In this document: in pieces, positions 4,351 through 48,737 of the stretch | Numbering within the stretch: position 1 is the first letter of the stretch | Layout of the letters: each line of letters begins with the position of its first letter | Source of the DNA: Escherichia phage vB_EcoM_HZ_ZJUN4 | Direction: 5' to 3' (one strand) | Sequence record: PP216085 | Length of the DNA: 64,000 bases | Made by a program: the position numbers and the translations under genes | Notes under the pieces: generated by a model | Told to the model about the DNA's origin: nothing | Seen by the model: the letters and a program-made list of their open reading frames with translations, nothing else | Database searches by the model: none

Positions 4351-4664
4351 AAAAGCGTCTATTAGAAGATATTGCAGCTTCAAGTAATTCCAGTCTAATT
4401 AAAATTATTATGGCTGGTGAAGAAGACGATCTGGAAATGCGCGGAAAGATTCATGGTTGTGACGATCTAGACTTTAAACCTCCTGCTTGGGATGCCATTA
4501 TGGCTATGGTTGAACGTCGCGAAAGGGCTTCTAAGAGTGTTCCGAACTGCCCAAAATGTGGTACCGAACAGGTACAATTAGTTCATTGGCAGACTAGTAT
4601 TCTTCGTTATAAATGTCGTCATTGCAAACACCGATTTAACCGAGAAGAAAATGACAAAGCGTAA
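4347..4664 (+). CDS. small zinc-ribbon protein
   Basis: C-terminal CPKCG...CRHCKH (CxxC-x17-CxxC); start overlaps previous stop (ATGA). Confidence 0.5.
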
Positions 4665-4893
4665 AGAATATATGGAGATTGCTGAAAAAGCAGTCCGTGA
4701 ATTAGCAATAGCTTATTATAATGAACATGGTAAATTTCCTGATAGATACAGCGTGCTTAAATCTGCTTTAACTCGTTCATATAAAAATATGCTATCAGAA
4801 GTAAGTGATATTATATACAAACATAAAGAACAAACTGGCCAAAGTCTTGATTATGACGAGACTTTTAAACAAGTACTAGGAATTAAGGAATAA
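4651..4893 (+). CDS. hypothetical protein
   Basis: Track ORF, 80 aa, tightly packed between neighbours. Confidence 0.45.
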
Positions 4894-4894
4894 T

Positions 4895-5158
4895 ATGTTT
4901 AAAGTATATGGTTATGATAGCAACATCCATAAATGTGTGTATTGTGATAATGCAAAACGTCTCTTGACTGTGAAGAAACAGCCGTTTGAATTTATCAACA
5001 TTATGCCGGAAAAAGGTGTTTTTGATGATGAGAAAATCGCTGAGCTTCTGACTAAACTAGGTCGTGATACTCAAATCGGATTGACGATGCCTCAGGTATT
5101 TGCTCCTGATGGAAGTCATATTGGTGGATTTGACCAATTGCGGGAATACTTTAAATGA
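4895..5158 (+). CDS. nrdC: phage thioredoxin/glutaredoxin NrdC
   Basis: 87 aa with CVYC redox motif near N-terminus; matches recalled T4 NrdC. Confidence 0.85.
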   Translation: MFKVYGYDSNIHKCVYCDNAKRLLTVKKQPFEFINIMPEKGVFDDEKIAELLTKLGRDTQIGLTMPQVFAPDGSHIGGFDQLREYFK

Positions 5159-6300: not shown

Positions 6301-6774
6301 ATGTTATTGACTGGCAAATTGTACAAAGAAGAAAAACAAAAATTTTATGATGCACAAAACGGTAAATGCTTAATTTGCCAACGAGAATTAAATCCTGATG
6401 TTCAAGCTAATCACCTTGACCATGACCATGAATTAAATGGACCGAAAGCTGGAAAGGTACGTGGGTTGCTTTGTAATCTCTGTAATGCGGCAGAAGGTCA
6501 AATGAAACATAAATTTAATCGTTCTGGCTTAAAAGGACAAGGCGTTGATTATCTTGAATGGTTAGAAAATTTACTTACTTATTTAAAATCCGATTACACC
6601 CAAAATAATATTCACCCTAACTTTGTTGGAGATAAATCAAAGGAATTTTCTCGTTTAGGAAAAGAGGAAATGATGGCTGAGATGCTTCAAAGAGGATTTG
6701 AATATAATGAATCTGACACTAAAACACAATTAATAGCTTCATTTAAGAAGCAGCTTAGAAAGAGTTTAAAATGA
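6301..6774 (+). CDS. 49: endonuclease VII, Holliday junction resolvase
   Basis: 157 aa; Cys cluster CLICQ...CNLCN; matches recalled T4 gp49. Confidence 0.85.
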   Translation: MLLTGKLYKEEKQKFYDAQNGKCLICQRELNPDVQANHLDHDHELNGPKAGKVRGLLCNLCNAAEGQMKHKFNRSGLKGQGVDYLEWLENLLTYLKSDYTQNNIHPNFVGDKSKEFSRLGKEEMMAEMLQRGFEYNESDTKTQLIASFKKQLRKSLK

Positions 6775-8588
6775 CAATTGAAAAAGAAATTGAAGGATTA
6801 ATTCATAAAACTAATAAAGACCTTTTGAACGAGAATGCTAATAAAGATTCTCGTGTTTTTCCAACTCAACGGGACCTTATGGCTGGTATTGTGTCTAAAC
6901 ACATTGCCAAAAATATGGTCCCGTCTTTTATTATGAAAGCGCATGAAAGCGGAATTATTCATTTCCATGATATTGATTATTCCCCTGCTCTTCCATTTAC
7001 TAATTGCTGTTTAGTAGATTTAAAAGGAATGCTTGAGAACGGGTTTAAGCTTGGTAATGCACAGATTGAAACCCCTAAATCAATCGGCGTTGCTACTGCA
7101 ATTATGGCACAAATTACTGCACAGGTTGCTTCCCATCAATACGGTGGAACGACTTTTGCGAATGTAGATAAAGTCCTTTCTCCTTATGTTAAACGCACCT
7201 ATGCAAAACATATTGAAGACGCGGAAAAATGGCAAATCACTGATGCGTTGAATTATGCCCAATCTAAAACAGAAAAAGATGTATACGATGCGTTCCAAGC
7301 TTATGAATATGAAGTAAATACTCTCTTTAGTTCAAACGGACAAACGCCTTTTGTAACAATTACATTTGGTACGGGAACTGACTGGACTGAACGAATGATT
7401 CAGAAAGCAATTCTGAAAAATCGTATTAAAGGTCTTGGTCGTGACGGGATAACTCCTATTTTCCCTAAACTTGTTATGTTCGTTGAAGAAGGTGTTAATC
7501 TTTATAAAGACGATCCGAACTATGATATTAAGCAGCTTGCTCTAGAGTGTGCAAGCAAAAGAATGTATCCTGATATTATTTCAGCTAAGAACAATAAAGC
7601 TATCACCGGTTCATCTATTCCTGTTTCTCCAATGGGTTGCCGTAGTTTCTTGAGCGTATGGAAAGATTCGACTGGTAATGAAATTCTTGATGGACGTAAT
7701 AATCTTGGTGTTGTAACACTGAATCTTCCTCGCATTGCACTAGATTCTTATATTGGAACACAGTTCAATGAACAGAAATTTGCCGAATTGTTCAATGAGA
7801 GAATGGATTTATGTTTTGAAGCATTGATGTGTAGAATTAGTTCCTTAAAAGGAGTTAAAGCTACTGTTGCTCCTATTCTTTACCAAGAAGGTGCATTCGG
7901 GGTTCGTCTTAAACCTGATGACGATATAATTGAGTTATTTAAAAACGGTAGAAGTTCAGTGTCCCTAGGATACATTGGTATTCACGAATTGAATATTCTT
8001 GTCGGTCGTGATATTGGACAAGAAATTTTAACTAAAATGAATACTCATCTTAAGCAGTGGACTGAAAGAACCGGTTTTGCTTTTAGCTTGTATTCTACTC
8101 CTGCTGAAAACCTGTGCTATCGCTTCTGTAAACTTGATACTGAGAAATATGGAAGTGTAAAAGATGTTACTGATAAAGGATGGTACACTAATAGTTTCCA
8201 TGTTTCAGTAGAAGAAAATATCACTCCGTTTGAAAAGATTTCTCGTGAAGCACCATATCATTTCATTGCGACAGGTGGTCACATTTCTTATGTTGAACTT
8301 CCTGATATGAAAAATAACTTAAAAGGTCTTGAGGCTGTATGGGATTATGCTGCGCAACATTTAGATTATTTTGGCGTTAACATGCCAGTAGATAAATGTT
8401 TTACGTGTGGAAGTACCCATGAAATGACTCCTACTGAAAACGGATTTGTTTGTTCTATTTGTGGAGAAACTGATCCTAAAAAGATGAACACAATAAGAAG
8501 AACTTGTGGTTATTTGGGAAATCCGAATGAACGCGGATTTAATCTTGGCAAAAATAAAGAAATCATGCATAGGGTTAAACACCAATGA
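6771..8588 (+). CDS. nrdD: anaerobic ribonucleoside-triphosphate reductase NrdD (uninterrupted, no intron)
   Basis: 605 aa; C-terminal Cys cluster CFTCGS...CSICGE and glycyl-radical region RRTCGYLGNPNERGFNLGK; matches recalled T4 NrdD. Confidence 0.95.
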   Translation: MTIEKEIEGLIHKTNKDLLNENANKDSRVFPTQRDLMAGIVSKHIAKNMVPSFIMKAHESGIIHFHDIDYSPALPFTNCCLVDLKGMLENGFKLGNAQIETPKSIGVATAIMAQITAQVASHQYGGTTFANVDKVLSPYVKRTYAKHIEDAEKWQITDALNYAQSKTEKDVYDAFQAYEYEVNTLFSSNGQTPFVTITFGTGTDWTERMIQKAILKNRIKGLGRDGITPIFPKLVMFVEEGVNLYKDDPNYDIKQLALECASKRMYPDIISAKNNKAITGSSIPVSPMGCRSFLSVWKDSTGNEILDGRNNLGVVTLNLPRIALDSYIGTQFNEQKFAELFNERMDLCFEALMCRISSLKGVKATVAPILYQEGAFGVRLKPDDDIIELFKNGRSSVSLGYIGIHELNILVGRDIGQEILTKMNTHLKQWTERTGFAFSLYSTPAENLCYRFCKLDTEKYGSVKDVTDKGWYTNSFHVSVEENITPFEKISREAPYHFIATGGHISYVELPDMKNNLKGLEAVWDYAAQHLDYFGVNMPVDKCFTCGSTHEMTPTENGFVCSICGETDPKKMNTIRRTCGYLGNPNERGFNLGKNKEIMHRVKHQ

Positions 8589-9424
8589 ATTACGATAGAT
8601 TTTATCCCTGTGATTTTGTGAATGATAAATTATCTTTAATATTTGAAGAAAATAATGATTTACTATTGTCATATGTTGATTTGATAACAAAAAATTATAA
8701 TAATCCTAAAATAAAAGGAAAAACGGAAGCACATCACGTGCTTCCCAAATCTATATTTCCCGAATATAAAACAGATAAATGGAATATTGTTAATTTGTCA
8801 TATTATGACCACGCGTTAGCTCATTACTATTTAGCTAAAACAAGTAATAGTAAAATGTGTTATGCCTTTCATAGAATGATAAACTCGAATACCGATAGAT
8901 TTAATACAGATGAATTGGATGAAATTCTTAAATTGTATTCCAGTGAAAAGGAATTATTTCACCGCTCTATGTCAAAATTATCGAAAAATATATGGAAGGA
9001 TGACGATTTTAGAAAAAGACATAGAGAACTAACTAAGTTAGCAATGCAAAAACCTGAAGTTAGAAATAAAACTTTATTAAATTTGTCAAATGCAATGAAA
9101 ACTGACGAAGTTAGAAATAAAATTTCCAGGCTAACTAAGTTAGCAATGCAAAAACCTGAAGTAAAAGAAAAACATAGAAATTCATTGAGGTTGGCGTATG
9201 CAAATCCTGAGGTTATGAAAAGAAAACATCAACGTCTTCGAGAAAAATATACTCTTAATTTATTTGGCGCATATAAAGATGGTGTTCTTTTAAAAACATT
9301 TAATTATATACCAGACGCAGCAAAATATTTTAATATTTCTAGCAAAGGAAATATTTTAAAATGTTTAAATGGCGAACGTAAAAGTGTTGAAGGCTATAAT
9401 TGGAAATATATAAATGAATTATGA
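8585..9424 (+). CDS. free-standing HNH homing endonuclease (Mob-like) inserted between nrdD and nrdG
   Basis: HNH region EAHHVLPKS...NIVNLSYYDHALAH; tandem repeated modules LTKLAMQKPEV(R/K)(N/E)K; first 13 codons MNYDRFYPCDFVN nearly identical to nrdG start. Confidence 0.85.
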   Translation: MNYDRFYPCDFVNDKLSLIFEENNDLLLSYVDLITKNYNNPKIKGKTEAHHVLPKSIFPEYKTDKWNIVNLSYYDHALAHYYLAKTSNSKMCYAFHRMINSNTDRFNTDELDEILKLYSSEKELFHRSMSKLSKNIWKDDDFRKRHRELTKLAMQKPEVRNKTLLNLSNAMKTDEVRNKISRLTKLAMQKPEVKEKHRNSLRLAYANPEVMKRKHQRLREKYTLNLFGAYKDGVLLKTFNYIPDAAKYFNISSKGNILKCLNGERKSVEGYNWKYINEL

Positions 9425-9884
9425 CAGAATATACCCGTGCTGCTTTGTGAATGGCCCTGGATGCAGGACCGTTCTTTTCGTTACAGGTTGTTTGCATAAA
9501 TGTGAAGGGTGTTATAATAAATCAACATGGAATGCTAGAAATGGCGTTCCATTCACTGGTGAAACACTGGAACAATTAATTAAATGTTTGAATAATGATT
9601 ATATAGAAGGATTAACTATAACTGGAGGAGACCCTCTTTATCCTGATAACCGAGATGTTGTTCATTGCATTGTTCAAACAGTAAAAAATCTTTATCCAAA
9701 TAAAAGCATTTGGTTGTGGACAGGATATAAGTTTGAAGATATTAAACAACTAGAAATGCTTAAATATGTTGATGTTATTATTGATGGGAAGTATGAGAAA
9801 AATCTTCCGACCAAAAAGCTGTGGCGAGGTTCAGATAATCAGCGACTTTGGTCAAATACCGATGGGGTGTGGAAACATGATTAA
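9414..9884 (+). CDS. nrdG: anaerobic RNR activating enzyme NrdG (radical SAM)
   Basis: 156 aa; CLHKCEGC radical-SAM cysteine motif; N-terminus MNYDRIYPCCFVNGPGC. Confidence 0.9.
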   Translation: MNYDRIYPCCFVNGPGCRTVLFVTGCLHKCEGCYNKSTWNARNGVPFTGETLEQLIKCLNNDYIEGLTITGGDPLYPDNRDVVHCIVQTVKNLYPNKSIWLWTGYKFEDIKQLEMLKYVDVIIDGKYEKNLPTKKLWRGSDNQRLWSNTDGVWKHD

Positions 9885-22158: not shown

Positions 22159-24855
22159 ATGAAAGAATTTTATATCTCTATTGAAACAGTCGGAAATAAC
22201 ATTGTTGAACGTTATATTGATGAAAATGGAAAGGAACGTACTCGTGAAGTAGAATATCTTCCGACTATGTTTAGGCATTGTAAGGAAGAGTCAAAATACA
22301 AAGACATTTATGGTAAAAATTGTGCTCCTCAAAAATTTCCATCAATGAAAGATGCCCGAGACTGGATGAAACGAATGGAAGACATCGGTCTCGAAGCTCT
22401 CGGTATGAACGATTTTAAACTCGCTTATATCAGTGATACATATGGTTCAGAAATTGTTTATGACCGAAAATTTGTTCGTGTAGCTAACTGTGACATTGAG
22501 GTTACTGGTGATAAATTTCCTGACCCAATGAAAGCAGAATATGAAATTGATGCTATCACTCATTATGATTCAATTGACGACCGTTTTTACGTCTTTGATT
22601 TGTTGAATTCAATGTACGGTTCAGTATCAAAATGGGATGCAAAGTTAGCTGCTAAGCTTGACTGTGAAGGTGGTGATGAAGTTCCTCAAGAAATTCTTGA
22701 CCGAGTAATTTATATGCCATTTGATAATGAGCGTGATATGCTCATGGAATATATTAATCTCTGGGAACAGAAACGACCTGCTATTTTTACTGGTTGGAAT
22801 ATTGAGGGATTTGACGTTCCGTATATCATGAATCGTGTTAAAATGGTTCTCGGCGAACGCAGTATGAAACGCTTCTCTCCAATCGGTCGAGTAAAATCTA
22901 AACTAATTCAAAATATGTACGGTAGCAAAGAAATTTATTCTATTGATGGCGTATCTATTCTTGATTATTTAGATTTGTACAAGAAATTCGCATTTACTAA
23001 TTTGCCATCATTCTCTTTGGAATCAGTTGCTCAGCACGAAACCAAAAAAGGTAAATTACCATACGACGGTCCTATTAATAAACTTCGTGAGACTAATCAT
23101 CAACGATACATTAGTTATAACATCATTGACGTAGAATCAGTTCAAGCAATTGATAAAATTCGCGGGTTTATTGATCTAGTTTTAAGTATGTCTTATTACG
23201 CTAAAATGCCTTTTTCTGGTGTAATGAGTCCTATTAAAACTTGGGATGCTATTATTTTTAACTCATTGAAAGGTGAACATAAGGTTATTCCTCAACAAGG
23301 TTCGCACGTTAAACAAAGTTTTCCAGGTGCATTTGTATTTGAACCTAAAGCGATTGCTCGTCGATACATTATGAGTTTTGACTTGACGTCTCTGTATCCG
23401 AGTATTATTCGTCAGGTTAACATTAGTCCTGAAACTATTCGTGGTCAGTTTAAAGTTCATCCAATTCATGAATATATCGCAGGAACAGCTCCTAAACCGA
23501 GTGATGAATATTCTTGTTCTCCGAATGGATGGATGTATGATAAGCATCAAGAAGGTATCATTCCAAAGGAAATCGCTAAAGTATTTTTCCAGCGTAAAGA
23601 TTGGAAAAAGAAAATGTTCGCCGAAGAAATGAATGCCGAAGCTATTAAAAAGATTATTATGAAAGGTGCAGGGTCTTGTTCAACTAAACCAGAAGTTGAA
23701 CGATATGTTAAGTTCAATGATGATTTCTTAAATGAATTATCGAATTACACCGAATCTGTTCTTAATAGTCTGATCGAAGAATGTGAAAAAGCAGCTACAC
23801 TTGCTAACACAAATCAGCTGAACCGTAAAATTCTTATTAACAGTCTTTATGGTGCTCTTGGTAACATTCATTTCCGCTATTATGATTTGCGAAATGCTAC
23901 TGCTATCACAATTTTTGGTCAAGTCGGTATTCAGTGGATTGCTCGTAAAATTAATGAATACCTGAATAAAGTGTGTGGAACTGATGGTGAAGATTTCATT
24001 GCAGCGGGTGACACTGATTCTGTATATGTTTGTGTAGATAAAGTAATTGAAAAAGTAGGTCTTGACCGCTTTAAAGAACAAAATGATTTAGTTGAATTCA
24101 TGAATCAGTTCGGTAAGAAAAAGATGGAACCTATGATTGATGTTGCATATCGTGAGTTATGTGATTATATGAATAACCGCGAGCATCTGATGCATATGGA
24201 CCGTGAAGCTATTTCTTGTCCTCCGCTTGGTTCAAAGGGTGTCGGTGGATTTTGGAAAGCGAAAAAACGTTATGCTCTAAACGTTTATGATATGGAAGAT
24301 AAGCGATTTGCTGAACCACATCTAAAAATCATGGGTATGGAAACTCAGCAGAGTTCAACACCAAAAGCAGTACAAGAAGCTCTCGAAGAAAGTATTCGTC
24401 GTATTCTTCAGGAAGGCGAAGAGTCTGTCCAAGAATACTACAAGAACTTTGAGAAAGAATATCGTCAACTTGACTATAAAGTTATTGCTGAAGTAAAAAC
24501 TGCGAATGATATAGCGAAATATGATGATAAAGGTTGGCCAGGATTTAAATGCCCGTTCCACATTCGCGGGGTGCTAACTTATCGTCGAGCTGTTAGTGGT
24601 TTAGGTGTAGCTCCAATTTTGGATGGAAATAAGGTAATGGTTCTTCCATTACGTGAGGGAAATCCATTTGGTGACAAGTGCATTGCTTGGCCATCAGGTA
24701 CGGAACTTCCAAAAGAAATTCGTTCTGATGTACTGTCTTGGATTGACTACTCAACTTTGTTCCAAAAATCGTTTGTTAAACCGCTTGCGGGCATGTGTGA
24801 ATCGGCAGGTATGGACTATGAGGAAAAAGCTTCGTTAGACTTCCTGTTTGGCTGA
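22159..24855 (+). CDS. 43: DNA polymerase gp43 (family B, with 3'-5' exonuclease)
   Basis: 898 aa; exo motif ANCDIEV, polymerase motifs SLYPSII, KILINSLYGALG, YGDTDS. Confidence 0.95.
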   Translation: MKEFYISIETVGNNIVERYIDENGKERTREVEYLPTMFRHCKEESKYKDIYGKNCAPQKFPSMKDARDWMKRMEDIGLEALGMNDFKLAYISDTYGSEIVYDRKFVRVANCDIEVTGDKFPDPMKAEYEIDAITHYDSIDDRFYVFDLLNSMYGSVSKWDAKLAAKLDCEGGDEVPQEILDRVIYMPFDNERDMLMEYINLWEQKRPAIFTGWNIEGFDVPYIMNRVKMVLGERSMKRFSPIGRVKSKLIQNMYGSKEIYSIDGVSILDYLDLYKKFAFTNLPSFSLESVAQHETKKGKLPYDGPINKLRETNHQRYISYNIIDVESVQAIDKIRGFIDLVLSMSYYAKMPFSGVMSPIKTWDAIIFNSLKGEHKVIPQQGSHVKQSFPGAFVFEPKAIARRYIMSFDLTSLYPSIIRQVNISPETIRGQFKVHPIHEYIAGTAPKPSDEYSCSPNGWMYDKHQEGIIPKEIAKVFFQRKDWKKKMFAEEMNAEAIKKIIMKGAGSCSTKPEVERYVKFNDDFLNELSNYTESVLNSLIEECEKAATLANTNQLNRKILINSLYGALGNIHFRYYDLRNATAITIFGQVGIQWIARKINEYLNKVCGTDGEDFIAAGDTDSVYVCVDKVIEKVGLDRFKEQNDLVEFMNQFGKKKMEPMIDVAYRELCDYMNNREHLMHMDREAISCPPLGSKGVGGFWKAKKRYALNVYDMEDKRFAEPHLKIMGMETQQSSTPKAVQEALEESIRRILQEGEESVQEYYKNFEKEYRQLDYKVIAEVKTANDIAKYDDKGWPGFKCPFHIRGVLTYRRAVSGLGVAPILDGNKVMVLPLREGNPFGDKCIAWPSGTELPKEIRSDVLSWIDYSTLFQKSFVKPLAGMCESAGMDYEEKASLDFLFG

Positions 24856-25829: not shown

Positions 25830-26570
25830 ATGATTAATGACTCTATGACAGTTGAAGAAATTCGTCTTCATTTGGGAATTGCATTAAAGGAAAAAGATTT
25901 TGTAATTGACAAAACCGGGGTTAAAACTATTGAAATTATTGGTGCATCATTTGTAGCAGATGAACCTTTTATTTTTGGCGCTCTTAATGATGAATACATT
26001 CAGCGTGAACTTGAATGGTATAAGTCTCAAAGTTTGTTTGTTAAAGATATTCCAGGTGAAACACCAAAGATTTGGCAGCAGGTAGCATCTTCTAAAGGCG
26101 AAATTAACTCGAATTATGGTTGGGCTATTTGGTCAGAAGATAACTATGCTCAGTATGATATGTGTTTAGCTGAACTTGGTCAAAATCCTGATTCTCGGCG
26201 TGGTATCATGATTTATACTCGTCCATCCATGCAGTTTGACTACAATAAAGATGGTATGTCAGATTTCATGTGTACGAATACAGTACAGTACCTGATTCGT
26301 GATAAGAAAGTCAATGCAGTAGTAAGCATGAGAAGCAATGATTGCTGGGCAGGCTATCGTAATGATTATGCTTGGCAAAAATACGTACTAGATAAATTAG
26401 TATCTGACTTGAATGCAGGCGACCCATCGCGGCAATATAAAGCAGGTTCTATTATATGGAACGTTGGAAGTCTTCATGTGTACGAAAATCAGTTTTATTT
26501 AGTTGACCATTGGTGGAACACCGGTGAGACTCATATTGCTAAAAAGGATTATACTGGAAAATGGAAGTAA
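25830..26570 (+). CDS. 42: dCMP hydroxymethylase gp42
   Basis: 246 aa thymidylate-synthase-like; catalytic Cys context FMCTNTVQY. Confidence 0.92.
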   Translation: MINDSMTVEEIRLHLGIALKEKDFVIDKTGVKTIEIIGASFVADEPFIFGALNDEYIQRELEWYKSQSLFVKDIPGETPKIWQQVASSKGEINSNYGWAIWSEDNYAQYDMCLAELGQNPDSRRGIMIYTRPSMQFDYNKDGMSDFMCTNTVQYLIRDKKVNAVVSMRSNDCWAGYRNDYAWQKYVLDKLVSDLNAGDPSRQYKAGSIIWNVGSLHVYENQFYLVDHWWNTGETHIAKKDYTGKWK

Positions 26571-27202
26571 ATGTGCCACATGTTTATAAGTATAAACATC
26601 CTAAAACTAAAAAGTGGTATATAGGAAGTCATGATGGTCACAACCCGAATTATGATGGTTCGGGTGTAGTTTGGCAACATGCTAAAAAGAAATATGGAAT
26701 AAAATCCTTTAATAAAGAAATATTATATGAAGGACCAATGTTTAGACAGGTTGAAGAAATTATTTTAACTTGTTTAGATGCTGCTAATTGTCCGGATTCA
26801 TATAATTTAAAGAATGAAGCATGGGGAGGAAGTTTTCCAGGCAAATTAAATGGAATGTACGGTAAAAAACTATCTCCAGAAGAAAGATATAAGTGCGGAA
26901 ATGCCTTTCGTGGAATCAAGCGTCCTGATCATTCTAAAAGAATGAAAGGCGAAGGTAATCCAATGTATGGTAAAAATGAGCAGGCATATGGAATTATAAA
27001 TCGAGCCAAGGAAAATTCTGGTAAAACTTATGAAGAAATTTTTGGCGTAGAAAAAGCTAAAATAATTAAAGAAACGATGTCTAAAAATCGTAAAGGAAAA
27101 CCTCATAATTTGATAGAAAAAATATGTCCGCATTGCGGACTAAAAGGACGTGGGCCAAATATGACAAGATACCATTTTGACAAATGTAAGGCACTTAAAT
27201 GA
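26561..27202 (+). CDS. GIY-YIG homing endonuclease (Seg-like)
   Basis: N-terminal KWYIGSHDG...YDGSG GIY-YIG-like motif; repeated modules (GKKLSPEERYK / GIKRPDHSKRMKGEGNPMYGK); C-terminal CPHCG; overlaps gene 42 end. Confidence 0.75.
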   Translation: MEVNVPHVYKYKHPKTKKWYIGSHDGHNPNYDGSGVVWQHAKKKYGIKSFNKEILYEGPMFRQVEEIILTCLDAANCPDSYNLKNEAWGGSFPGKLNGMYGKKLSPEERYKCGNAFRGIKRPDHSKRMKGEGNPMYGKNEQAYGIINRAKENSGKTYEEIFGVEKAKIIKETMSKNRKGKPHNLIEKICPHCGLKGRGPNMTRYHFDKCKALK

Positions 27203-28041
27203 TTCAATTCGTAATTCCAAGTTATCAACGCGTAGGGGCAGTTTCTGCCCTTGATATGTTTCCGACTGATTATGAACCTCATATTGTAGTACGTGAACAC
27301 GAAGAAAAAGCTTATTATGACGCTTACGGGTCTAGAGCTAAAATTATAACTATTCCTGATGATGTTAATGGAATTGCTGGAACTCGTAAAGCAATTACTG
27401 ATATGTATGCAGGTCAACGAATCTGGATGATTGACGATGATACTACTATTCGTATGAGTTCAATGCGAAAGAAAGATGATCGTCGCTGCGTAGATAAAAT
27501 TAACCAGTTAACTCGTGAACAGTTCTATGAATTGATTCAATACGTTGAAGATGCCATGGATTGCGGGTATTATCATGGTCATGCTCGTTTACCTATTTTT
27601 AAAATTACTTCATCTTGGGGTAATTATCGTGAAAATTCATATGGATTCACGAATACTTGGTATGACCTCGGAAAACTTGCAACAGAACAAATTGGGTATG
27701 GAAAAATTGATTTATGCGAAGATATGTATGCATTTCTCAATTTAATTAATCAAGGTTATCCGCATTTGGCCTTGTTCAAATATCTAGTTGTATCTGGAAA
27801 AGCACAGGCTCCCGGTGGATGCAGCTCAATTCGTAGTAATTCAAAACATAATAGAGCGCTTGAGCAAATCAATAGAGAGTTTCCAGAGCAAGCTCGTTGG
27901 AAAACTTCTAATATTGAAAAACGAAAATCATTGGGTGAAGAAGACGAGCCATTAAAGGTTCTTCGCATGTGTGTTTCACGCAAAGAAAAGTCAGAAGCAT
28001 TTCATAAGTTTAATGCTATTCATCCAATAGCAGTTGATTAA
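27199..28041 (+). CDS. putative DNA-modifying glycosyltransferase at the beta-gt locus (possibly beta-glucosyl-HMC-alpha-glucosyltransferase type)
   Basis: 280 aa between gene 42 and uvsX; N-terminus MIQFVIPSYQRVG and acidic MIDDDTT; not the recalled T4 Bgt sequence. Confidence 0.45.
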   Translation: MIQFVIPSYQRVGAVSALDMFPTDYEPHIVVREHEEKAYYDAYGSRAKIITIPDDVNGIAGTRKAITDMYAGQRIWMIDDDTTIRMSSMRKKDDRRCVDKINQLTREQFYELIQYVEDAMDCGYYHGHARLPIFKITSSWGNYRENSYGFTNTWYDLGKLATEQIGYGKIDLCEDMYAFLNLINQGYPHLALFKYLVVSGKAQAPGGCSSIRSNSKHNRALEQINREFPEQARWKTSNIEKRKSLGEEDEPLKVLRMCVSRKEKSEAFHKFNAIHPIAVD

Positions 28042-28118: not shown

Positions 28119-29300
28119 ATGTCTATTGCAGATTTAAAATCCCGTTTGATTAAAGCTTCCACTTCTAAAATGACTGCTGAACTGACTACATCTAAATTCT
28201 TTAATGAAAAGGATGTAATCCGTACAAAAATCCCAATGCTTAATATCGCTATTTCAGGTGCGATTGACGGTGGTATGCAGTCTGGTTTAACCATTTTTGC
28301 AGGTCCTTCTAAACACTTTAAATCAAATATGTCTTTGACTATGGTTGCGGCGTATTTGAACAAATATCCTGACGCGGTATGTCTATTTTATGATAGCGAA
28401 TTTGGTATTACTCCAGCTTATTTGCGATCCATGGGAGTTGACCCGGAACGAGTAATTCATACACCAATCCAGTCAGTTGAACAACTGAAAATTGATATGG
28501 TGAATCAGCTTGAAGCTATTGAGCGCGGTGAAAAAGTTATTGTATTCATCGACTCAATCGGTAATATGGCTTCTAAGAAAGAAACGGAAGATGCCTTGAA
28601 TGAAAAATCTGTGGCAGATATGACTCGTGCTAAATCACTGAAGTCATTATTCCGTATTGTTACTCCTTATTTTAGCATTAAAAATATTCCATGCGTTGCG
28701 GTTAACCATACAATTGAAACAATTGAAATGTTTAGTAAAACCGTGATGACAGGTGGTACAGGCGTAATGTATTCGGCTGATACTGTATTCATTATCGGTA
28801 AGCGTCAGATTAAAGATGGTTCTGATCTTCAGGGGTATCAATTTGTTCTAAATGTAGAAAAATCTCGTACCGTTAAAGAAAAAAGTAAATTCTTTATTGA
28901 TGTTAAATTTGACGGTGGTATCGATCCTTATTCTGGATTGTTAGATATGGCTCTTGAATTAGGATTTGTGGTAAAACCTAAAAATGGCTGGTATGCTCGT
29001 GAATTTCTTGATGAAGAAACCGGCGAGATGATTCGTGAAGAAAAATCTTGGCGTGCAAAAGATACCAATTGCACTACATTCTGGGGTCCTTTATTTAAGC
29101 ATCAACCATTCCGAGATGCTATTAAACGTGCTTATCAGTTAGGTGCTATTGATAGTAATGAAATTGTTGAAGCTGAAGTTGATGAATTGATTAACTCAAA
29201 GGTTGAAAAATTTAAATCTCCAGAAAGTAAAAGTAAATCAGCAGCTGATTTAGAAACTGACCTAGAACAGTTAAGTGATATGGAAGAATTTAATGAATAA
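28119..29300 (+). CDS. uvsX: recombinase UvsX (RecA-like)
   Basis: 393 aa; Walker A GPSKHFKS; C-terminal sequence matches recalled T4 UvsX closely. Confidence 0.95.
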   Translation: MSIADLKSRLIKASTSKMTAELTTSKFFNEKDVIRTKIPMLNIAISGAIDGGMQSGLTIFAGPSKHFKSNMSLTMVAAYLNKYPDAVCLFYDSEFGITPAYLRSMGVDPERVIHTPIQSVEQLKIDMVNQLEAIERGEKVIVFIDSIGNMASKKETEDALNEKSVADMTRAKSLKSLFRIVTPYFSIKNIPCVAVNHTIETIEMFSKTVMTGGTGVMYSADTVFIIGKRQIKDGSDLQGYQFVLNVEKSRTVKEKSKFFIDVKFDGGIDPYSGLLDMALELGFVVKPKNGWYAREFLDEETGEMIREEKSWRAKDTNCTTFWGPLFKHQPFRDAIKRAYQLGAIDSNEIVEAEVDELINSKVEKFKSPESKSKSAADLETDLEQLSDMEEFNE

Positions 29301-31946: not shown

Positions 31947-32240
31947 ATGAAAAAATTTGTTTTTGCTGCAATTTTTGCTTTGACTTCTTGTGCTGCTCAG
32001 CCTGCTATGGCGGGTTATGATAAAGATTTGTGCGAATGGTCTATGACTGCAGATCAGACTGAGGTTGAAACTCAAATTGAAGCGGATATTATGAATATCG
32101 TTGAGCGTGATCGTCCTGAAATGAAAGCTGAAGTACAAAAACAGCTTAAATCTGGTGGTGTAATGCAGTATAATTATGTTCTGTATTGCGATAAAAACTT
32201 CAATAATAAAAATATCATCGCTGAAGTGGTAGGTGAATAA
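31947..32240 (+). CDS. sp: probable Spackle (periplasmic lysozyme inhibitor / superinfection exclusion)
   Basis: 97 aa with signal peptide MKKFVFAAIFALTSCAAQPAMA; between 41 and 61; RBS GAGGAGATT. Confidence 0.65.
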   Translation: MKKFVFAAIFALTSCAAQPAMAGYDKDLCEWSMTADQTEVETQIEADIMNIVERDRPEMKAEVQKQLKSGGVMQYNYVLYCDKNFNNKNIIAEVVGE

Positions 32241-32851
32241 TGCTTTATCAAATGCACAAGTGCAAAGACACGTACAAATATAAAGGTGCCCAGTGTTATA
32301 TCATTAATCGTGAAAACGCAGGTCCAGGTCATTCGCATCAATCGCGGTTTGTATTCGTTAAAAACAACGAAATTATAGCAGTTGCTAATTACATGCTTGC
32401 GACTAGTGATGTTAATCCGGTGCCTTTCACATATTATAATCTAATGGACTTGGCGTACGATTATAATTGGTTTAATCATGATACTTTGGCTCATATTGAA
32501 GGTGTAGGATTTGATATCTCTTATTCTAGTTACTCGTTGTGTCCTATGAGCCGAGCTCATAAAGAGCCTGAATATTTTTCATTTCGTCGGCGTGTAGACT
32601 TTAAACGCAGCACAGAGTATGTCGGTGGAATCTTTGTTAAAGATAATCGAATTACTCGCATTATTTATCCTTTGGGCTGTGGTCAAAAAGATATTGATGT
32701 TGATTTAGACTTTACTGAAAACATCATTAATCATATTGCTTCTGTGTATTTTGATATTGATCACAAAATTGTAATATGTGGATATGAATTACCATCAGAA
32801 AAACAGTCTATTGATGACCAAATTTTTAATGCTTTTATGAATAGAGGTTAA
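32240..32851 (+). CDS. hypothetical protein
   Basis: 203 aa; start overlaps sp stop. Confidence 0.55.
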   Translation: MLYQMHKCKDTYKYKGAQCYIINRENAGPGHSHQSRFVFVKNNEIIAVANYMLATSDVNPVPFTYYNLMDLAYDYNWFNHDTLAHIEGVGFDISYSSYSLCPMSRAHKEPEYFSFRRRVDFKRSTEYVGGIFVKDNRITRIIYPLGCGQKDIDVDLDFTENIINHIASVYFDIDHKIVICGYELPSEKQSIDDQIFNAFMNRG

Positions 32852-40488: not shown

Positions 40489-41235
40489 ATGAAACTGTCT
40501 AAAAATCAAATTCGTAAAATTACACGTCGTCTAGAGCATACTCAGGCATCTGCTAAAAGACGTTCTAAAGATTTTAACTTAGACTTCAATTACATTAAGA
40601 ACATTTTAGATCAGAAAGTTTGCGCTTACTCGGGAGAACCTTTTGATAATCGTATTGAAGGAGAGAAATTATCGTTAGAACGTTTTGATAATAACGTTGG
40701 ATATATTAAAGGGAATGTTATTGCAGTAAAGAAAAAGTATAATACATTTCGTTCTGATTATACTTTAGAAGAGTTGATTGAAAAGCGTGATTTATTTGCT
40801 TTGCGAATTTGTCGTTCATCTGCGAAAAAAGTTCATAAACTAAATTTAGATGAAAAGAAATGGGCTAAAATCAAAAAGACTTATAATCAAATTAAAGCTA
40901 TACAGAAAAAACGTGAAAACCGAATTGAGCACATTTCTCAGCTTTCTAAATCAAAACAAACCTCTGACATTAAGCTAACGATTATAGCACTTAAAGCTCG
41001 TATTGATGGTTCTCGTATAGCAGAAGGCGCTGAAGTTGTTAAATTGAACGTTCTTCTTAAAGGCTCGGATTGGAAAACTGTGAAAAAGTTGTCAGAAGCA
41101 GAAATGCAATATGATATGTGTGATAAAATTATTCAAGGTGTAGAGCGGTATCAAAACTTGTCTTTTATTGATAAACTTAAACTGAAAAGAGGATACCCGC
41201 TAAATTGTTCAATTTTTAAACTTATCCGAGGATAA
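40489..41235 (+). CDS. hypothetical protein (Srd-like by position between modA and dda)
   Basis: 248 aa basic protein; assignment by synteny only. Confidence 0.45.
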   Translation: MKLSKNQIRKITRRLEHTQASAKRRSKDFNLDFNYIKNILDQKVCAYSGEPFDNRIEGEKLSLERFDNNVGYIKGNVIAVKKKYNTFRSDYTLEELIEKRDLFALRICRSSAKKVHKLNLDEKKWAKIKKTYNQIKAIQKKRENRIEHISQLSKSKQTSDIKLTIIALKARIDGSRIAEGAEVVKLNVLLKGSDWKTVKKLSEAEMQYDMCDKIIQGVERYQNLSFIDKLKLKRGYPLNCSIFKLIRG

Positions 41236-46338: not shown

Positions 46339-46390
46339 AGCTTTATGATTACCGGAGTATAATATTCCCGAAACCAAACGAGGATAAGTG

Positions 46391-47941
46391 ATGATTAAGA
46401 ATGAAATTAAAATTCTAAGCGATATTGAACATATCAAAAAGCGTAGCGGCATGTATATTGGCTCTTCTGCTAATGAAATGCATGAGCGCTTTCTGTTTGG
46501 TAAATGGGAAAGTGTTCAGTATGTACCTGGTCTTGTTAAGCTTATTGATGAAATTATCGATAACTCAGTAGATGAAGGTATTCGTACTAAGTTTAAATTC
46601 GCAAATAAAATTAATGTTACTATTAAAAACAATCAAGTAACAGTTGAAGATAACGGTCGTGGTATTCCACAAGCGATGGTTAAAACACCTACCGGTGAAG
46701 AAATTCCTGGTCCTGTTGCTGCATGGACTATTCCAAAAGCAGGCGGTAACTTTGGTGATGATAAAGAACGCGTCACTGGCGGTATGAACGGTGTTGGTTC
46801 TAGTTTAACTAACATTTTTTCTGTGATGTTTGTCGGTGAAACTGGCGACGGTCAAAATAATATTGTAGTTCGTTGTTCAAATGGCATGGAAAATAAATCA
46901 TGGGAAACTATTCCTGGAAAATGGAAAGGAACTCGCGTTACTTTCATTCCTGATTTTATGTCATTTGAAACTAATGAGCTATCTCAAGTTTATCTTGACA
47001 TTACACTAGATCGTCTCCAGACACTTGCAGTAGTTTATCCTGATATTCAATTTACCTTTAATGGTAAAAAGGTTCAGGGTAATTTTAAGAAATATGCACG
47101 CCAATATGATGAACACGCTATCGTTCAAGAACAAGAAAATTGTTCTATTGCGGTTGGTCGTTCACCCGATGGTTTTCGTCAATTAACATACGTCAATAAC
47201 ATTCATACTAAGAATGGTGGCCATCACATTGACTGCGTTATGGATGATATTTGTGAAGACCTTATTCCACAAATCAAACGTAAGTTCAAAATTGACGTAA
47301 CTAAAGCACGTGTTAAAGAATGTTTGACTATCGTTATGTTTGTTCGTGATATGAAAAACATGCGATTTGATTCTCAAACTAAAGAGCGTCTGACTTCTCC
47401 ATTTGGTGAAATCCGTAGTCATATTCAGCTTGATGCTAAAAAGATTTCACGTGCTATTTTGAATAATGAAGCAATTTTAATGCCAATCATTGAAGCTGCC
47501 TTGGCTCGTAAATTGGCGGCAGAAAAAGCAGCAGAAACTAAAGCAGCTAAAAAGGCTTCTAAAGCTAAGGTTCATAAACATATTAAAGCGAATCTTTGCG
47601 GTAAAGATGCTGATACTACTCTTTTCTTGACTGAGGGTGATTCTGCTATCGGATATCTTATTGATGTTCGTGATAAAGAACTTCATGGTGGTTATCCATT
47701 GCGTGGTAAAGTTCTTAACAGTTGGGGTATGTCATATGCTGATATGCTTAAAAATAAAGAACTGTTTGATATTTGCGCAATCACTGGATTAGTTCTTGGT
47801 GAAAAGGCGTTTGAAGAAAAAGAAGATGGCGAGTGGTTTACTTTCGAACTAAATGGCGATACAATTATCGTAAATGAAAATGATGAAGTACAGATTAATG
47901 GTAAATGGATAACAGTAGGTGAATTACGAAAAAATCTATAA
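46391..47941 (+). CDS. 39: DNA topoisomerase II large subunit gp39 (GyrB-like ATPase)
   Basis: ATG after CGAGGATAA; GHKL ATPase motifs (IDNSVDEG, DNGRGIP); 516 aa. Confidence 0.92.
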   Translation: MIKNEIKILSDIEHIKKRSGMYIGSSANEMHERFLFGKWESVQYVPGLVKLIDEIIDNSVDEGIRTKFKFANKINVTIKNNQVTVEDNGRGIPQAMVKTPTGEEIPGPVAAWTIPKAGGNFGDDKERVTGGMNGVGSSLTNIFSVMFVGETGDGQNNIVVRCSNGMENKSWETIPGKWKGTRVTFIPDFMSFETNELSQVYLDITLDRLQTLAVVYPDIQFTFNGKKVQGNFKKYARQYDEHAIVQEQENCSIAVGRSPDGFRQLTYVNNIHTKNGGHHIDCVMDDICEDLIPQIKRKFKIDVTKARVKECLTIVMFVRDMKNMRFDSQTKERLTSPFGEIRSHIQLDAKKISRAILNNEAILMPIIEAALARKLAAEKAAETKAAKKASKAKVHKHIKANLCGKDADTTLFLTEGDSAIGYLIDVRDKELHGGYPLRGKVLNSWGMSYADMLKNKELFDICAITGLVLGEKAFEEKEDGEWFTFELNGDTIIVNENDEVQINGKWITVGELRKNL

Positions 47942-48737
47942 TGACTTAATAGTGCGGGGTAAAACCCGCGTTTCTAAATTTAAGGGTGAAATTCATCATA
48001 TCCTTCCAAGATCAATGGGAGGTTCTGATGATAAAGAAAATTTGGTGAAACTGACTTTTCGTGAACATTTTTTAGCACATTTTCTACTATATAAAATTCA
48101 TCGTAATCGTGAAATGGCATATGCGATGAATAGAATGTTAAACACTGAAAAATATTTACGTTCTAGTAAATTATATGAAATTACTAGAATTTACCATCAA
48201 AGAGCAGTATCTGAATGGTCAAAAAACTTTATGAAAGATAAAGTTTTAATGAGAAGTATTAAATCGGGTAAATGCGCCTTATTAATTAAAGGATCATTTA
48301 ACCCAAAGGAATGGTGCGGTGTTAATAAAGGTGTTAAGCTTCCTGGAATTAAAGGCATGACATGCTTTAAAAATGAAAAAGGCGAAGTTTTTCGTCTTCA
48401 TGTTAATGATCCACGCATTAAAGCTGAAAAATTAGTTGGTATTGGAAATACTGTTGCTGCTACTGCAAAAGCAGCTGAACTTGAAAAAGCGAAACCATGG
48501 TATAATAAATCAGCGACAAATCCAGAGGCTGTAAAATTAATACCAAATTTATATGAATGGTACGTCACGAAATATGACCCCGATCATTATAAACGAACGG
48601 GAGTTGCTAAATGGAAATCAGTTAATAATATAACTGTGAATTCAAAATTATTCGGCCGAGCATTTAATGAATTTAAACGCGGTTGGATTCCTGATGAAAA
48701 GTTCTATGAGGTGTATAATGAAATTTGTAAAAATTGA
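47919..48737 (+). CDS. mobA: HNH homing endonuclease MobA between genes 39 and 60
   Basis: 272 aa; HNH region EIHHILPRSMGGSDDKENLVKLTFREHFLAH; overlaps gene 39 end (23 nt) and gene 60 start (20 nt). Confidence 0.85.
   Translation: MNYEKIYNDLIVRGKTRVSKFKGEIHHILPRSMGGSDDKENLVKLTFREHFLAHFLLYKIHRNREMAYAMNRMLNTEKYLRSSKLYEITRIYHQRAVSEWSKNFMKDKVLMRSIKSGKCALLIKGSFNPKEWCGVNKGVKLPGIKGMTCFKNEKGEVFRLHVNDPRIKAEKLVGIGNTVAATAKAAELEKAKPWYNKSATNPEAVKLIPNLYEWYVTKYDPDHYKRTGVAKWKSVNNITVNSKLFGRAFNEFKRGWIPDEKFYEVYNEICKN

Follow-up and report, generated by a model that had tools for sequence, protein, structure and literature searches.

Which gene does an endonuclease act upon when its own gene is wedged between gene 42 and a glycosyltransferase gene, and how does it spread? 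We address this question for a 213-amino-acid (aa) open reading frame (ORF; 26561..27202, ATG start, TGA stop) in a stretch of 64,000 nucleotides (nt) from Escherichia phage vB_EcoM_HZ_ZJUN4 (record PP216085), referred to as the window in the following. The window is a segment of a T-even (Tequatrovirus) genome, and coordinates within it refer throughout to the + strand. On its 5' side, the ORF adjoins gene 42 (25830..26570), which encodes deoxycytidylate (dCMP) hydroxymethylase and is both its host gene and its probable target; on its 3' side lies ba-gt (27199..28041), the gene for the 280-aa beta-glucosyl-hydroxymethylcytosine (HMC)-alpha-glucosyltransferase, which remains outside the mobile unit. 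Since T-even phages are textbook carriers of free-standing Seg endonucleases, the gene itself comes as no surprise, and several GenBank records already name this ORF a homing endonuclease.

In our best explanation, to which we assign a probability of about 0.78 as a whole, the ORF is a promoter-less cassette, co-transcribed between gene 42 and ba-gt, and encodes a Seg-type homing endonuclease that would cut the gene 42 of ORF-less relatives and home by co-conversion. Part of the argument is a recoded block in gene 42 that is linked to the ORF. Together with ORF-less, seemingly resistant alleles, this block provides natural substrates for the study of a homing life cycle, from invasion and fixation to resistance and loss.

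A haplotype block in gene 42 is linked to the ORF

We compared seven ORF-positive with seven ORF-less Tequatrovirus genomes. The two groups are separated by 38 fixed differences, all of which fall within positions 502–740 of gene 42 (26331..26569), while ba-gt contains none, its first 60 nt included. Divergence between the groups amounts to 12–25% inside this block, versus 1–7% elsewhere, and all ORF-bearing genomes have the left edge of the block at position 502. The differences are densest at positions 502–528 (26331..26357), i.e. in codons R168–F176, where 17 of the 27 nt are fixed-different. Here, RSND-VVFGF is changed to RSND-CWAGY, and the Arg and Ser codons are recoded from CGC to AGA and from TCA to AGC. 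A second patch, at positions 654–663 (26483..26492), replaces S-R-H with E-N-Q, and a third covers positions 725–740. Such one-sided linkage would be expected from a break well upstream of the ORF. On this basis, we regard gene 42 as the target and codons R168–F176 as the leading candidate for the site that is cleaved or recognized in ORF-less alleles.

A search with the block returned 76 records with at least 95% identity, nine with 90–95% and 418 with 80–90%. At least five ORF-less phages, whose sequences we read directly (ERS-1, PD112, T4_ev151, CJY920 and EO1), have the block as far as about position 700, followed by the tail and junction typical of ORF-less genomes, and CE1 and BYEP01 fit the same chimeric pattern. 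Judging by their sequences, these ORF-less carriers look like products of partial conversion or like resistant alleles without the ORF. Most ORF-bearing alleles use AGY codons for the serine and encode x-W-A-G-Y. As proof of ORF presence, we rejected the Arg AGA/Ser AGY recoding: loci L021, L022, L023, L037/38 and L044 are exceptions, and the ORF-less phage Moon also reads AGA AGC.

The densest patch has a counterpart in the paralogous thymidylate synthase gene td. Exon 1 of T4 td (L109) ends in ...WYQRSVDVFLG|LPFN, with the intron inserted after G183, and the CAACG motif cleaved by I-TevI spans Q175–R176 (PMC5009752). It follows from this exon end that R168–G175 in gp42 corresponds exactly, by homology, to R176–G183 of td, the stretch that leads from the cleavage motif to the site of intron insertion. 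If the RSND-x4-G stretch is indeed the target, the endonuclease would exploit the same part of the thymidylate synthase (TS) fold as I-TevI and the td intron. I-TevI and I-BmoI, encoded in the td and thyA introns, respectively, resemble the ORF in their GIY-YIG fold and in having a target of the TS superfamily, gp42 being a TS paralogue; the correspondence of the targets is drawn from linkage rather than from cleavage data. In contrast to I-TevI, the ORF is not intron-encoded, lacks the R27 helix, and has neither a zinc-finger linker nor a helix-turn-helix, but a C-terminal C2HC module.

Occurrence, overlaps and selection

Copies of the ORF with 98–100% nucleotide identity occur in 77 phage records, always between gene 42 and ba-gt. 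By comparison, 474 records contain ba-gt, about 400 of them without the ORF. The segment that ORF-less relatives lack measures 632 base pairs (bp; 26567..27198), with boundaries ambiguous by 2–3 nt owing to AA repeats. In T6, phiC600P9 and RB51, the ORF-less junction is clean, as the end of gene 42 (...GAGTGGAAATGATTC) overlaps the ATG of ba-gt; the same empty junction is found in N2, teqskov, phiD1 and Sf23, and it is identical in all seven ORF-less genomes.

As the first-pass annotation had stated, the ORF overlaps both of its neighbors. Its ATG lies within the final codons of gene 42, with an overlap of 10 nt, and its stop codon shares 4 nt (ATGA) with the start codon of ba-gt. The last codons of the ORF contain an AAGG element (27188..27191), 7 nt 5' of the ba-gt ATG, which takes the place of an AGGTGAG in the gene 42 tail of ORF-less phages and probably serves as the Shine-Dalgarno element of ba-gt. 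Searches for sigma-70, T4 late (TATAAATA) and MotA-box promoters found none above chance in or before the ORF. Promoter-less overlapping cassettes have been described for segC, segF and segG, and an overlap with the upstream gene is also known from segC, segF and mobA (PMC2988022).

A chance ORF is ruled out by its conservation across the 77 records, by a ratio of nonsynonymous to synonymous polymorphism (pN/pS) of 0.07 among seven ORF-bearing genomes chosen to include the most divergent copies, and by its match to PHROG 314 (E 2.3e-31). The ORF is under purifying selection, and the corresponding divergence ratio (dN/dS) is 0.12–0.15 when the ORF is compared with its copies in Klebsiella Jiaodavirus and Yersinia phage MHG19, which are 65–70% identical. 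In the same seven genomes, its synonymous diversity is 0.057, versus 0.16–0.19 for gene 42 (positions 1–501) and ba-gt. At about one-third of that of its flanks, this diversity indicates a recent spread across older backgrounds.

One further locus may record a loss. In Klebsiella phage vB_KpnM_GF (L009, 2364-3090), a truncated gene 42 of 214 aa is directly followed by the last ~30 endonuclease codons alone, which are 80% identical to residues 181–210. Either this arrangement was left by a deletion, or the record, labeled ‘partial genome’, was wrongly assembled.

A predicted Seg-type GIY-YIG endonuclease

PHROG 314, annotated as ‘homing endonuclease’, covers the whole protein with the E-value given above, and TIGR01453 (‘group I intron endonuclease’) matches residues 8–185 below its threshold (E 3.3e-5; 24 bits against a cutoff of 56). 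Pfam models recognize the GIY-YIG domain in a part of its 30 homologues, 11 of which match PF19835 (SegE_GIY-YIG) and six PF01541. The best match of the family profile in the PDB is I-TevI's catalytic domain, with a marginal E-value of 0.05; a phmmer search against PDB sequences gave a single match to an ATP-binding cassette (ABC) transporter (E 0.5), which we rejected as spurious. The AlphaFold2 model, with a mean predicted local distance difference test score (pLDDT) of 85.5 and values above 90 in the N-terminal domain, has the layout beta-beta-alpha-beta-alpha. Its top three PDB neighbors in Foldseek are I-TevI structures (1MK0/1LN0; probability 1.00, template-modeling score 0.63–0.66, root-mean-square deviation 2.9–3.0 Å). 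In BFVD, it has 200 structural neighbors at E≤0.001, and those that carry a name within the top 50 are endonucleases of the Seg-like, GIY-YIG or NUMOD3 kind.

The nuclease domain comprises residues 1–90 (26561..26830) and is marked by Y9, Y20-I21-G22, Y31-x-G33-S34-G35, K44, E65 and N82. Both signatures noted in the first-pass annotation are there, as W19-Y20-I21-G22-S23-H24-D25-G26 and Y31-D32-G33-S34-G35, the former preceded by V8-Y9-K10. Alignment to I-TevI with hhalign equates Y9 with Y6, Y20 with Y17, E65 with E75 and N82 with N90. Y9, the first catalytic tyrosine in the ‘GIY’ strand, is conserved in at least 90% of the 30 homologues, while Y20 and G22 of the ‘YIG’ strand are invariant in these homologues as well as in an alignment with T4 SegA, B, C and F. 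The metal-binding glutamate is represented by E65 within E-x-x-[IL]-[LV], and all close family members that we read have a glutamate there; its pairing with E75 is that of hhalign, whereas MAFFT and HMMER are shifted by 1–2 residues. Finally, N82 of the Y81-N82 pair is invariant in the T4 Seg alignment and conserved in at least 90% of the homologues.

The region C-terminal to the nuclease domain contains two NUMOD3-like repeats at residues ~94–120 and ~125–156 (26840..27028), which correspond to the ‘repeated basic modules’ of the first-pass annotation. Their cores are N97-G-M-Y-G-K and N133-P-M-Y-G-K (residues 97–102 and 133–138). Pfam NUMOD3 matches residues 125–138 just below its cutoff (E 0.0027; 18 bits against 20.4) and is found in 19 of the 30 homologues, at best with E 4.5e-10. 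The protein ends in a zinc-finger-like beta-beta-alpha module of the C2HC type (C189-x2-C192 ... H205-x3-C209; 27116..27187) with the motif CPHCG..GPNMTRYHFDKC, which is modeled with strands at residues 186–188 and 195–197 and a helix at 200–208. C189, P190, C192, H205 and C209 are nearly invariant among the homologues, and CPHCG-type C-terminal motifs recur in many other phage endonucleases. According to sequence and model, the nuclease domain is thus probably attached to an extended region for DNA binding, made up of two NUMOD3 repeats, a helical segment and the zinc-finger-like module. PHROG 655 also matches in this region, over residues 87–210.

The resemblance to T4 SegC and the Seg family as a whole is extensive. 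They share the pattern xYxY..., YIG[SV]H, Y-x-GSG, KYG, Glu, YN and GG, the NUMOD3 modules and the lack of an R27 helix; like the ORF, Seg genes are free-standing between conserved genes, overlap the upstream gene, have no promoter of their own and occur sporadically among close relatives (PMC2988022). Fold, motifs, NUMOD3 modules and sporadic presence therefore bear out the prediction of a free-standing Seg-type GIY-YIG homing endonuclease, and the protein is likely to have nuclease activity. By contrast, identity to SegC is just 35% over the N-terminal 132 residues, and 22–32% to SegA, B and F; the C2HC module is absent from T4 SegA, B, C and F; and T4 has no seg gene at this locus, its segA lying on the far side of b-gt. 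Orthology to a named T4 seg gene (SegA–G) was accordingly rejected, given that even the best match, SegC, is limited to 35% over 132 residues and stems from another locus. The ORF is an uncharacterized but ordinary member of the Seg type at a locus that is empty in T4. In GenBank, it is labeled ‘hypothetical protein’, ‘homing endonuclease’ or ‘segD’; we found no evidence on which the last label rests, and ‘Seg-like GIY-YIG homing endonuclease’ would be a fitting annotation, in place of either ‘hypothetical protein’ or ‘segD’. A literature search aimed at an endonuclease between gene 42 and a glycosyltransferase gene found no published description.

Relatives of the ORF adjoin gene 42

In Jiaodavirus, the copy of the ORF is located between gene 42 and a ba-gt-like gene, and in Yersinia phage MHG19 between gene 42 and a T4-type b-gt. 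Four of four metagenomic relatives (44–56% identity) lie directly 3' of a gp42-like gene, and the genes on their own 3' side, which include a helicase gene, a gene resembling that of inosine monophosphate dehydrogenase (IMPDH) and small ORFs, are mutually unrelated. Likewise, all 16 IMG/VR loci with a full-length relative of at least 47% identity have a TS-family gene upstream, which is immediately adjacent and clearly gp42-like in 14 of them; in L042 and L043, this gene is just 28% identical to gp42 and ~440 nt away. The clade thus follows gene 42 and not the glycosyltransferase gene, whatever lies downstream. Being bound to one target gene across distant phages, it would allow its specificity to be tested easily.

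Among 64 more distant or partial IMG/VR matches, a TS-family gene is nearby in only six. Four of these six (L084 and L086–L088) are similar to the ORF in position, 3' of a gp42-like gene, and in their C-terminal half, where NUMOD3 and CPHCG..NMTRYHFDNC are shared at 33% identity over residues 95–210. In contrast to the ORF, they have a canonical GIY-YIG domain that retains the Arg helix (..VARRFKTH..), as in I-TevI. In L086 (2210-2818), for instance, a 202-aa protein encoded right after the gp42-like gene joins this C-terminal half to a canonical GIY-YIG domain, in which the Arg helix is kept (..GYVGVTANVARRFKTH..). Given the shared C-terminal half and the different nuclease domains, the nuclease sub-type seems to have been exchanged or remodeled on a shared DNA-binding module.

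Proposed homing mechanism and alternatives

We envisage the following course of events. During co-infection with an ORF-less relative, the enzyme would cut the relative's gene 42 within its last ~240 bp, most likely in codons R168–F176, which encode the active-site motif RSND-VVFGF. Recombination-dependent repair from the ORF-carrying genome would then copy the sequence that extends from the break to the end of the ORF. The donor allele, with RSND-CWAGY and recoded Arg and Ser codons, would itself be resistant to cleavage, and as repair copies everything from the break through the ORF, the ORF would always travel with its own resistant allele of gene 42. We infer both the cut position and homing itself from sequence comparison. 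The population data, i.e. an ORF diversity one-third of that of the flanks, a one-sided block and alleles resembling partial conversion products, are in line with such preferential inheritance.

For SegF and SegG, the distances between cut and insertion point are 210 bp and 332 bp. The geometry proposed for the ORF would be similar, with the enzyme gene 3' of the gene that is cut and the cut ~200–300 bp from the insertion point. In both T4 systems, co-conversion of the segment in between is obligatory, and sequence differences shield the donor allele (PMC2988022; PMC2330249, citing Belle 2002, Liu 2003). In contrast to SegF and SegG, the cut site of the ORF is deduced from the linked haplotype block only.

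Several observations weigh against this interpretation, some concerning the enzyme and others the block. Pfam PF01541 and PF19835 give no match at E≤1 on the protein itself. Moreover, it has no equivalent of the I-TevI R27 helix: HMMER, hhalign and MAFFT all place a gap of ~10 residues at I-TevI positions ~24–33, and the AlphaFold2 model has a loop at residues 25–35, where the helix would be. Of the features looked for in the domain search by which the first-pass annotation proposed to refute its assignment, a Pfam GIY-YIG match and the catalytic arginine are hence missing, while Glu65 and the I-TevI fold are present. As for the block, it could be foreign DNA that arrived with the ORF and has remained linked because a divergence of 20% suppresses crossovers. 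Furthermore, CWAGY occurs without the ORF in another genus, in the Moonvirus CF1, and the distant ORF-bearing loci L023 and L044 have VVF-like motifs, so that the patch is not a universal marker of ORF presence.

Read to the letter, that criterion would have led to a wrong rejection, and we do not take the Pfam miss as a refutation, since profile, fold and family evidence agree. Together with the missing R27 equivalent, it would fit a catalytically impaired GIY-YIG derivative, kept as a DNA-binding protein or nickase, e.g. as a regulator of 42, ba-gt and uvsX, and strong purifying selection shows that the protein has a function, not which one. R27 is thought to stabilize the phosphoanion intermediate in I-TevI (PMC5009752). 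However, the YIG-x-H...Y-x-GSG segment is shortened in the same way, without the Arg helix, in T4 SegA, B, C and F, and all four have been reported to be active site-specific endonucleases (PMC2988022, PMC2330249). We therefore regard the gap as a trait of the Seg sub-family and not as decay. As the two tyrosines, the glutamate and the asparagine are all conserved, and as sporadic occurrence and a diversity below that of the flanks are typical of an actively spreading element, we consider an impaired derivative highly improbable. A cut at or next to the empty site, between the stop of gene 42 and the start of ba-gt, is a more serious contender. Insertion of the ORF would then destroy the site, and the block would be hitch-hiking donor DNA, whose high divergence alone could maintain the linkage. 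In agreement with this, the 30 nt preceding the junction (positions 711–740) hold eight of the 38 fixed differences, the junction is identical in the seven ORF-less genomes, and SegC and SegE cut near their own insertion sites (PMC2988022; PMC2330249). Yet a cut at the junction should lead to co-conversion on both sides, whereas variants linked to the ORF are missing from ba-gt, even from its first 60 nt; phages that combine the block with an ORF-less tail and junction are also more easily derived from a break well upstream of the ORF. On balance, we find a cut at the junction rather unlikely.

The first-pass annotation had proposed that homing carries along the adjacent glycosyltransferase cassette, so that the endonuclease would be the cause of the difference from T4 in this gene. 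The difference itself is real, with ba-gt here and the unrelated b-gt in T4. Moreover, 77 of 77 ORF-positive records have ba-gt and none a T4-type b-gt, and since the two genes are non-homologous, repair of a break in a b-gt phage would have to copy ba-gt as far as uvsX. T4 segA also lies on the other side of its glycosyltransferase gene, and one phage has ba-gt between two seg genes. But ba-gt is the majority form in Tequatrovirus, present without the ORF in ~400 records, and its alleles from ORF-positive and ORF-less phages are intermixed, with zero fixed differences as opposed to 38 in gene 42. The ORF family, in turn, adjoins b-gt in MHG19 and unrelated genes elsewhere. Hence, the difference between ba-gt and b-gt long predates the ORF and is independent of it, and exchange of the glycosyltransferase gene by the endonuclease is unsupported and, in our estimate, improbable.

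Given homing into gene 42, a wider scenario can be sketched. Three Citrobacter phages (L110–L112) without an endonuclease gene differ in their gp42 motif, which reads RSND-VVFGF in Moon and Ursula and RSND-CWAGY in CF1. The presence of two motif forms in more than one genus might reflect a long-lived polymorphism of sensitive and resistant alleles. The clade could then be specialized on the dCMP hydroxymethylase gene across T4-like genera and uncultured phages, recognize the RSND-x4-G codons, and maintain a trans-genus polymorphism of VVFGF-sensitive and CWAGY-resistant alleles, including resistant alleles that have shed the endonuclease, all without the canonical arginine. Taken jointly, these propositions are tentative, and we would not bet on all of them holding together. 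As for the arginine, the lack of its helix in both the ORF and T4 SegA, B, C and F raises the specific question of how Seg-type GIY-YIG enzymes achieve catalysis. We considered substitutes for R27, none of which could be assigned: H40, which aligns with I-TevI R47, is variable, R62 is conserved in the close family only, and K44 corresponds to I-TevI K51.

Gene order and other features of the window

Around the ORF, the genes listed from 43 to 41 are all encoded on the + strand. Gene 43 (22159-24855) is followed by imm.1 and imm and then by gene 42, whose assignment is based on Pfam Thymidylat_synt (1.6e-14) and on the same name in related records. Downstream of the ORF, ba-gt is identified by PHROG 842 (6e-89) and Pfam TAGT (8.6e-10), and uvsX (28119-29300) is followed by genes 40 and 41. 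T4 has 42, then b-gt, which encodes 351 aa and is unrelated to ba-gt, and then segA and uvsX; the interval between 42 and b-gt is empty. Escherichia phage 215Ecol030PP (L015, 3001-5151) has the ORF upstream of ba-gt and a 666-bp segA-like gene (4486-5151) between ba-gt and uvsX; hence, segA is not bound to the T4-type b-gt. About 35 nt inside ba-gt, both ORF-bearing and ORF-less phages have a hairpin with a 9-bp GC-rich stem (TAGGGGCAG TTT CTGCCCTTG; 27233-27253), which is labeled as a terminator in Yersinia phage fPS-2.

The window was also said to hold two HNH endonuclease genes, and this is plausible. The first, a 279-aa ORF (8585-9424) between nrdD (6771-8588) and nrdG (9414-9884), matches PHROG 655 (‘homing endonuclease’, 1.6e-36) and an HNH PHROG (3e-15) and contains modules of the NUMOD1/I-HmuI type. 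It is, by these matches and its position, a predicted free-standing HNH endonuclease gene at the mobC/hef position. Its family, PHROG 655, is the one that also matches the C-terminal half of the Seg-like ORF. The second, a 272-aa ORF (47919-48737), begins with GTG and shares 23 nt with the end of gene 39 (46388-47941). It has a weak match to Pfam HNH below the cutoff (E 7e-4), and its position and start codon would fit T4 mobA.

Two further genes of the window were identified in passing. A 203-aa ORF (32240-32851) is a full-length match to the Pfam family of the anti-DarT factor AdfA (E 2e-129). The ORF at 40489-41235 is a homologue of the anti-sigma factor Srd (PHROG 1400, 1e-107) and also matches HNH and endonuclease VII PHROGs, though more weakly (1e-16 to 1e-7).

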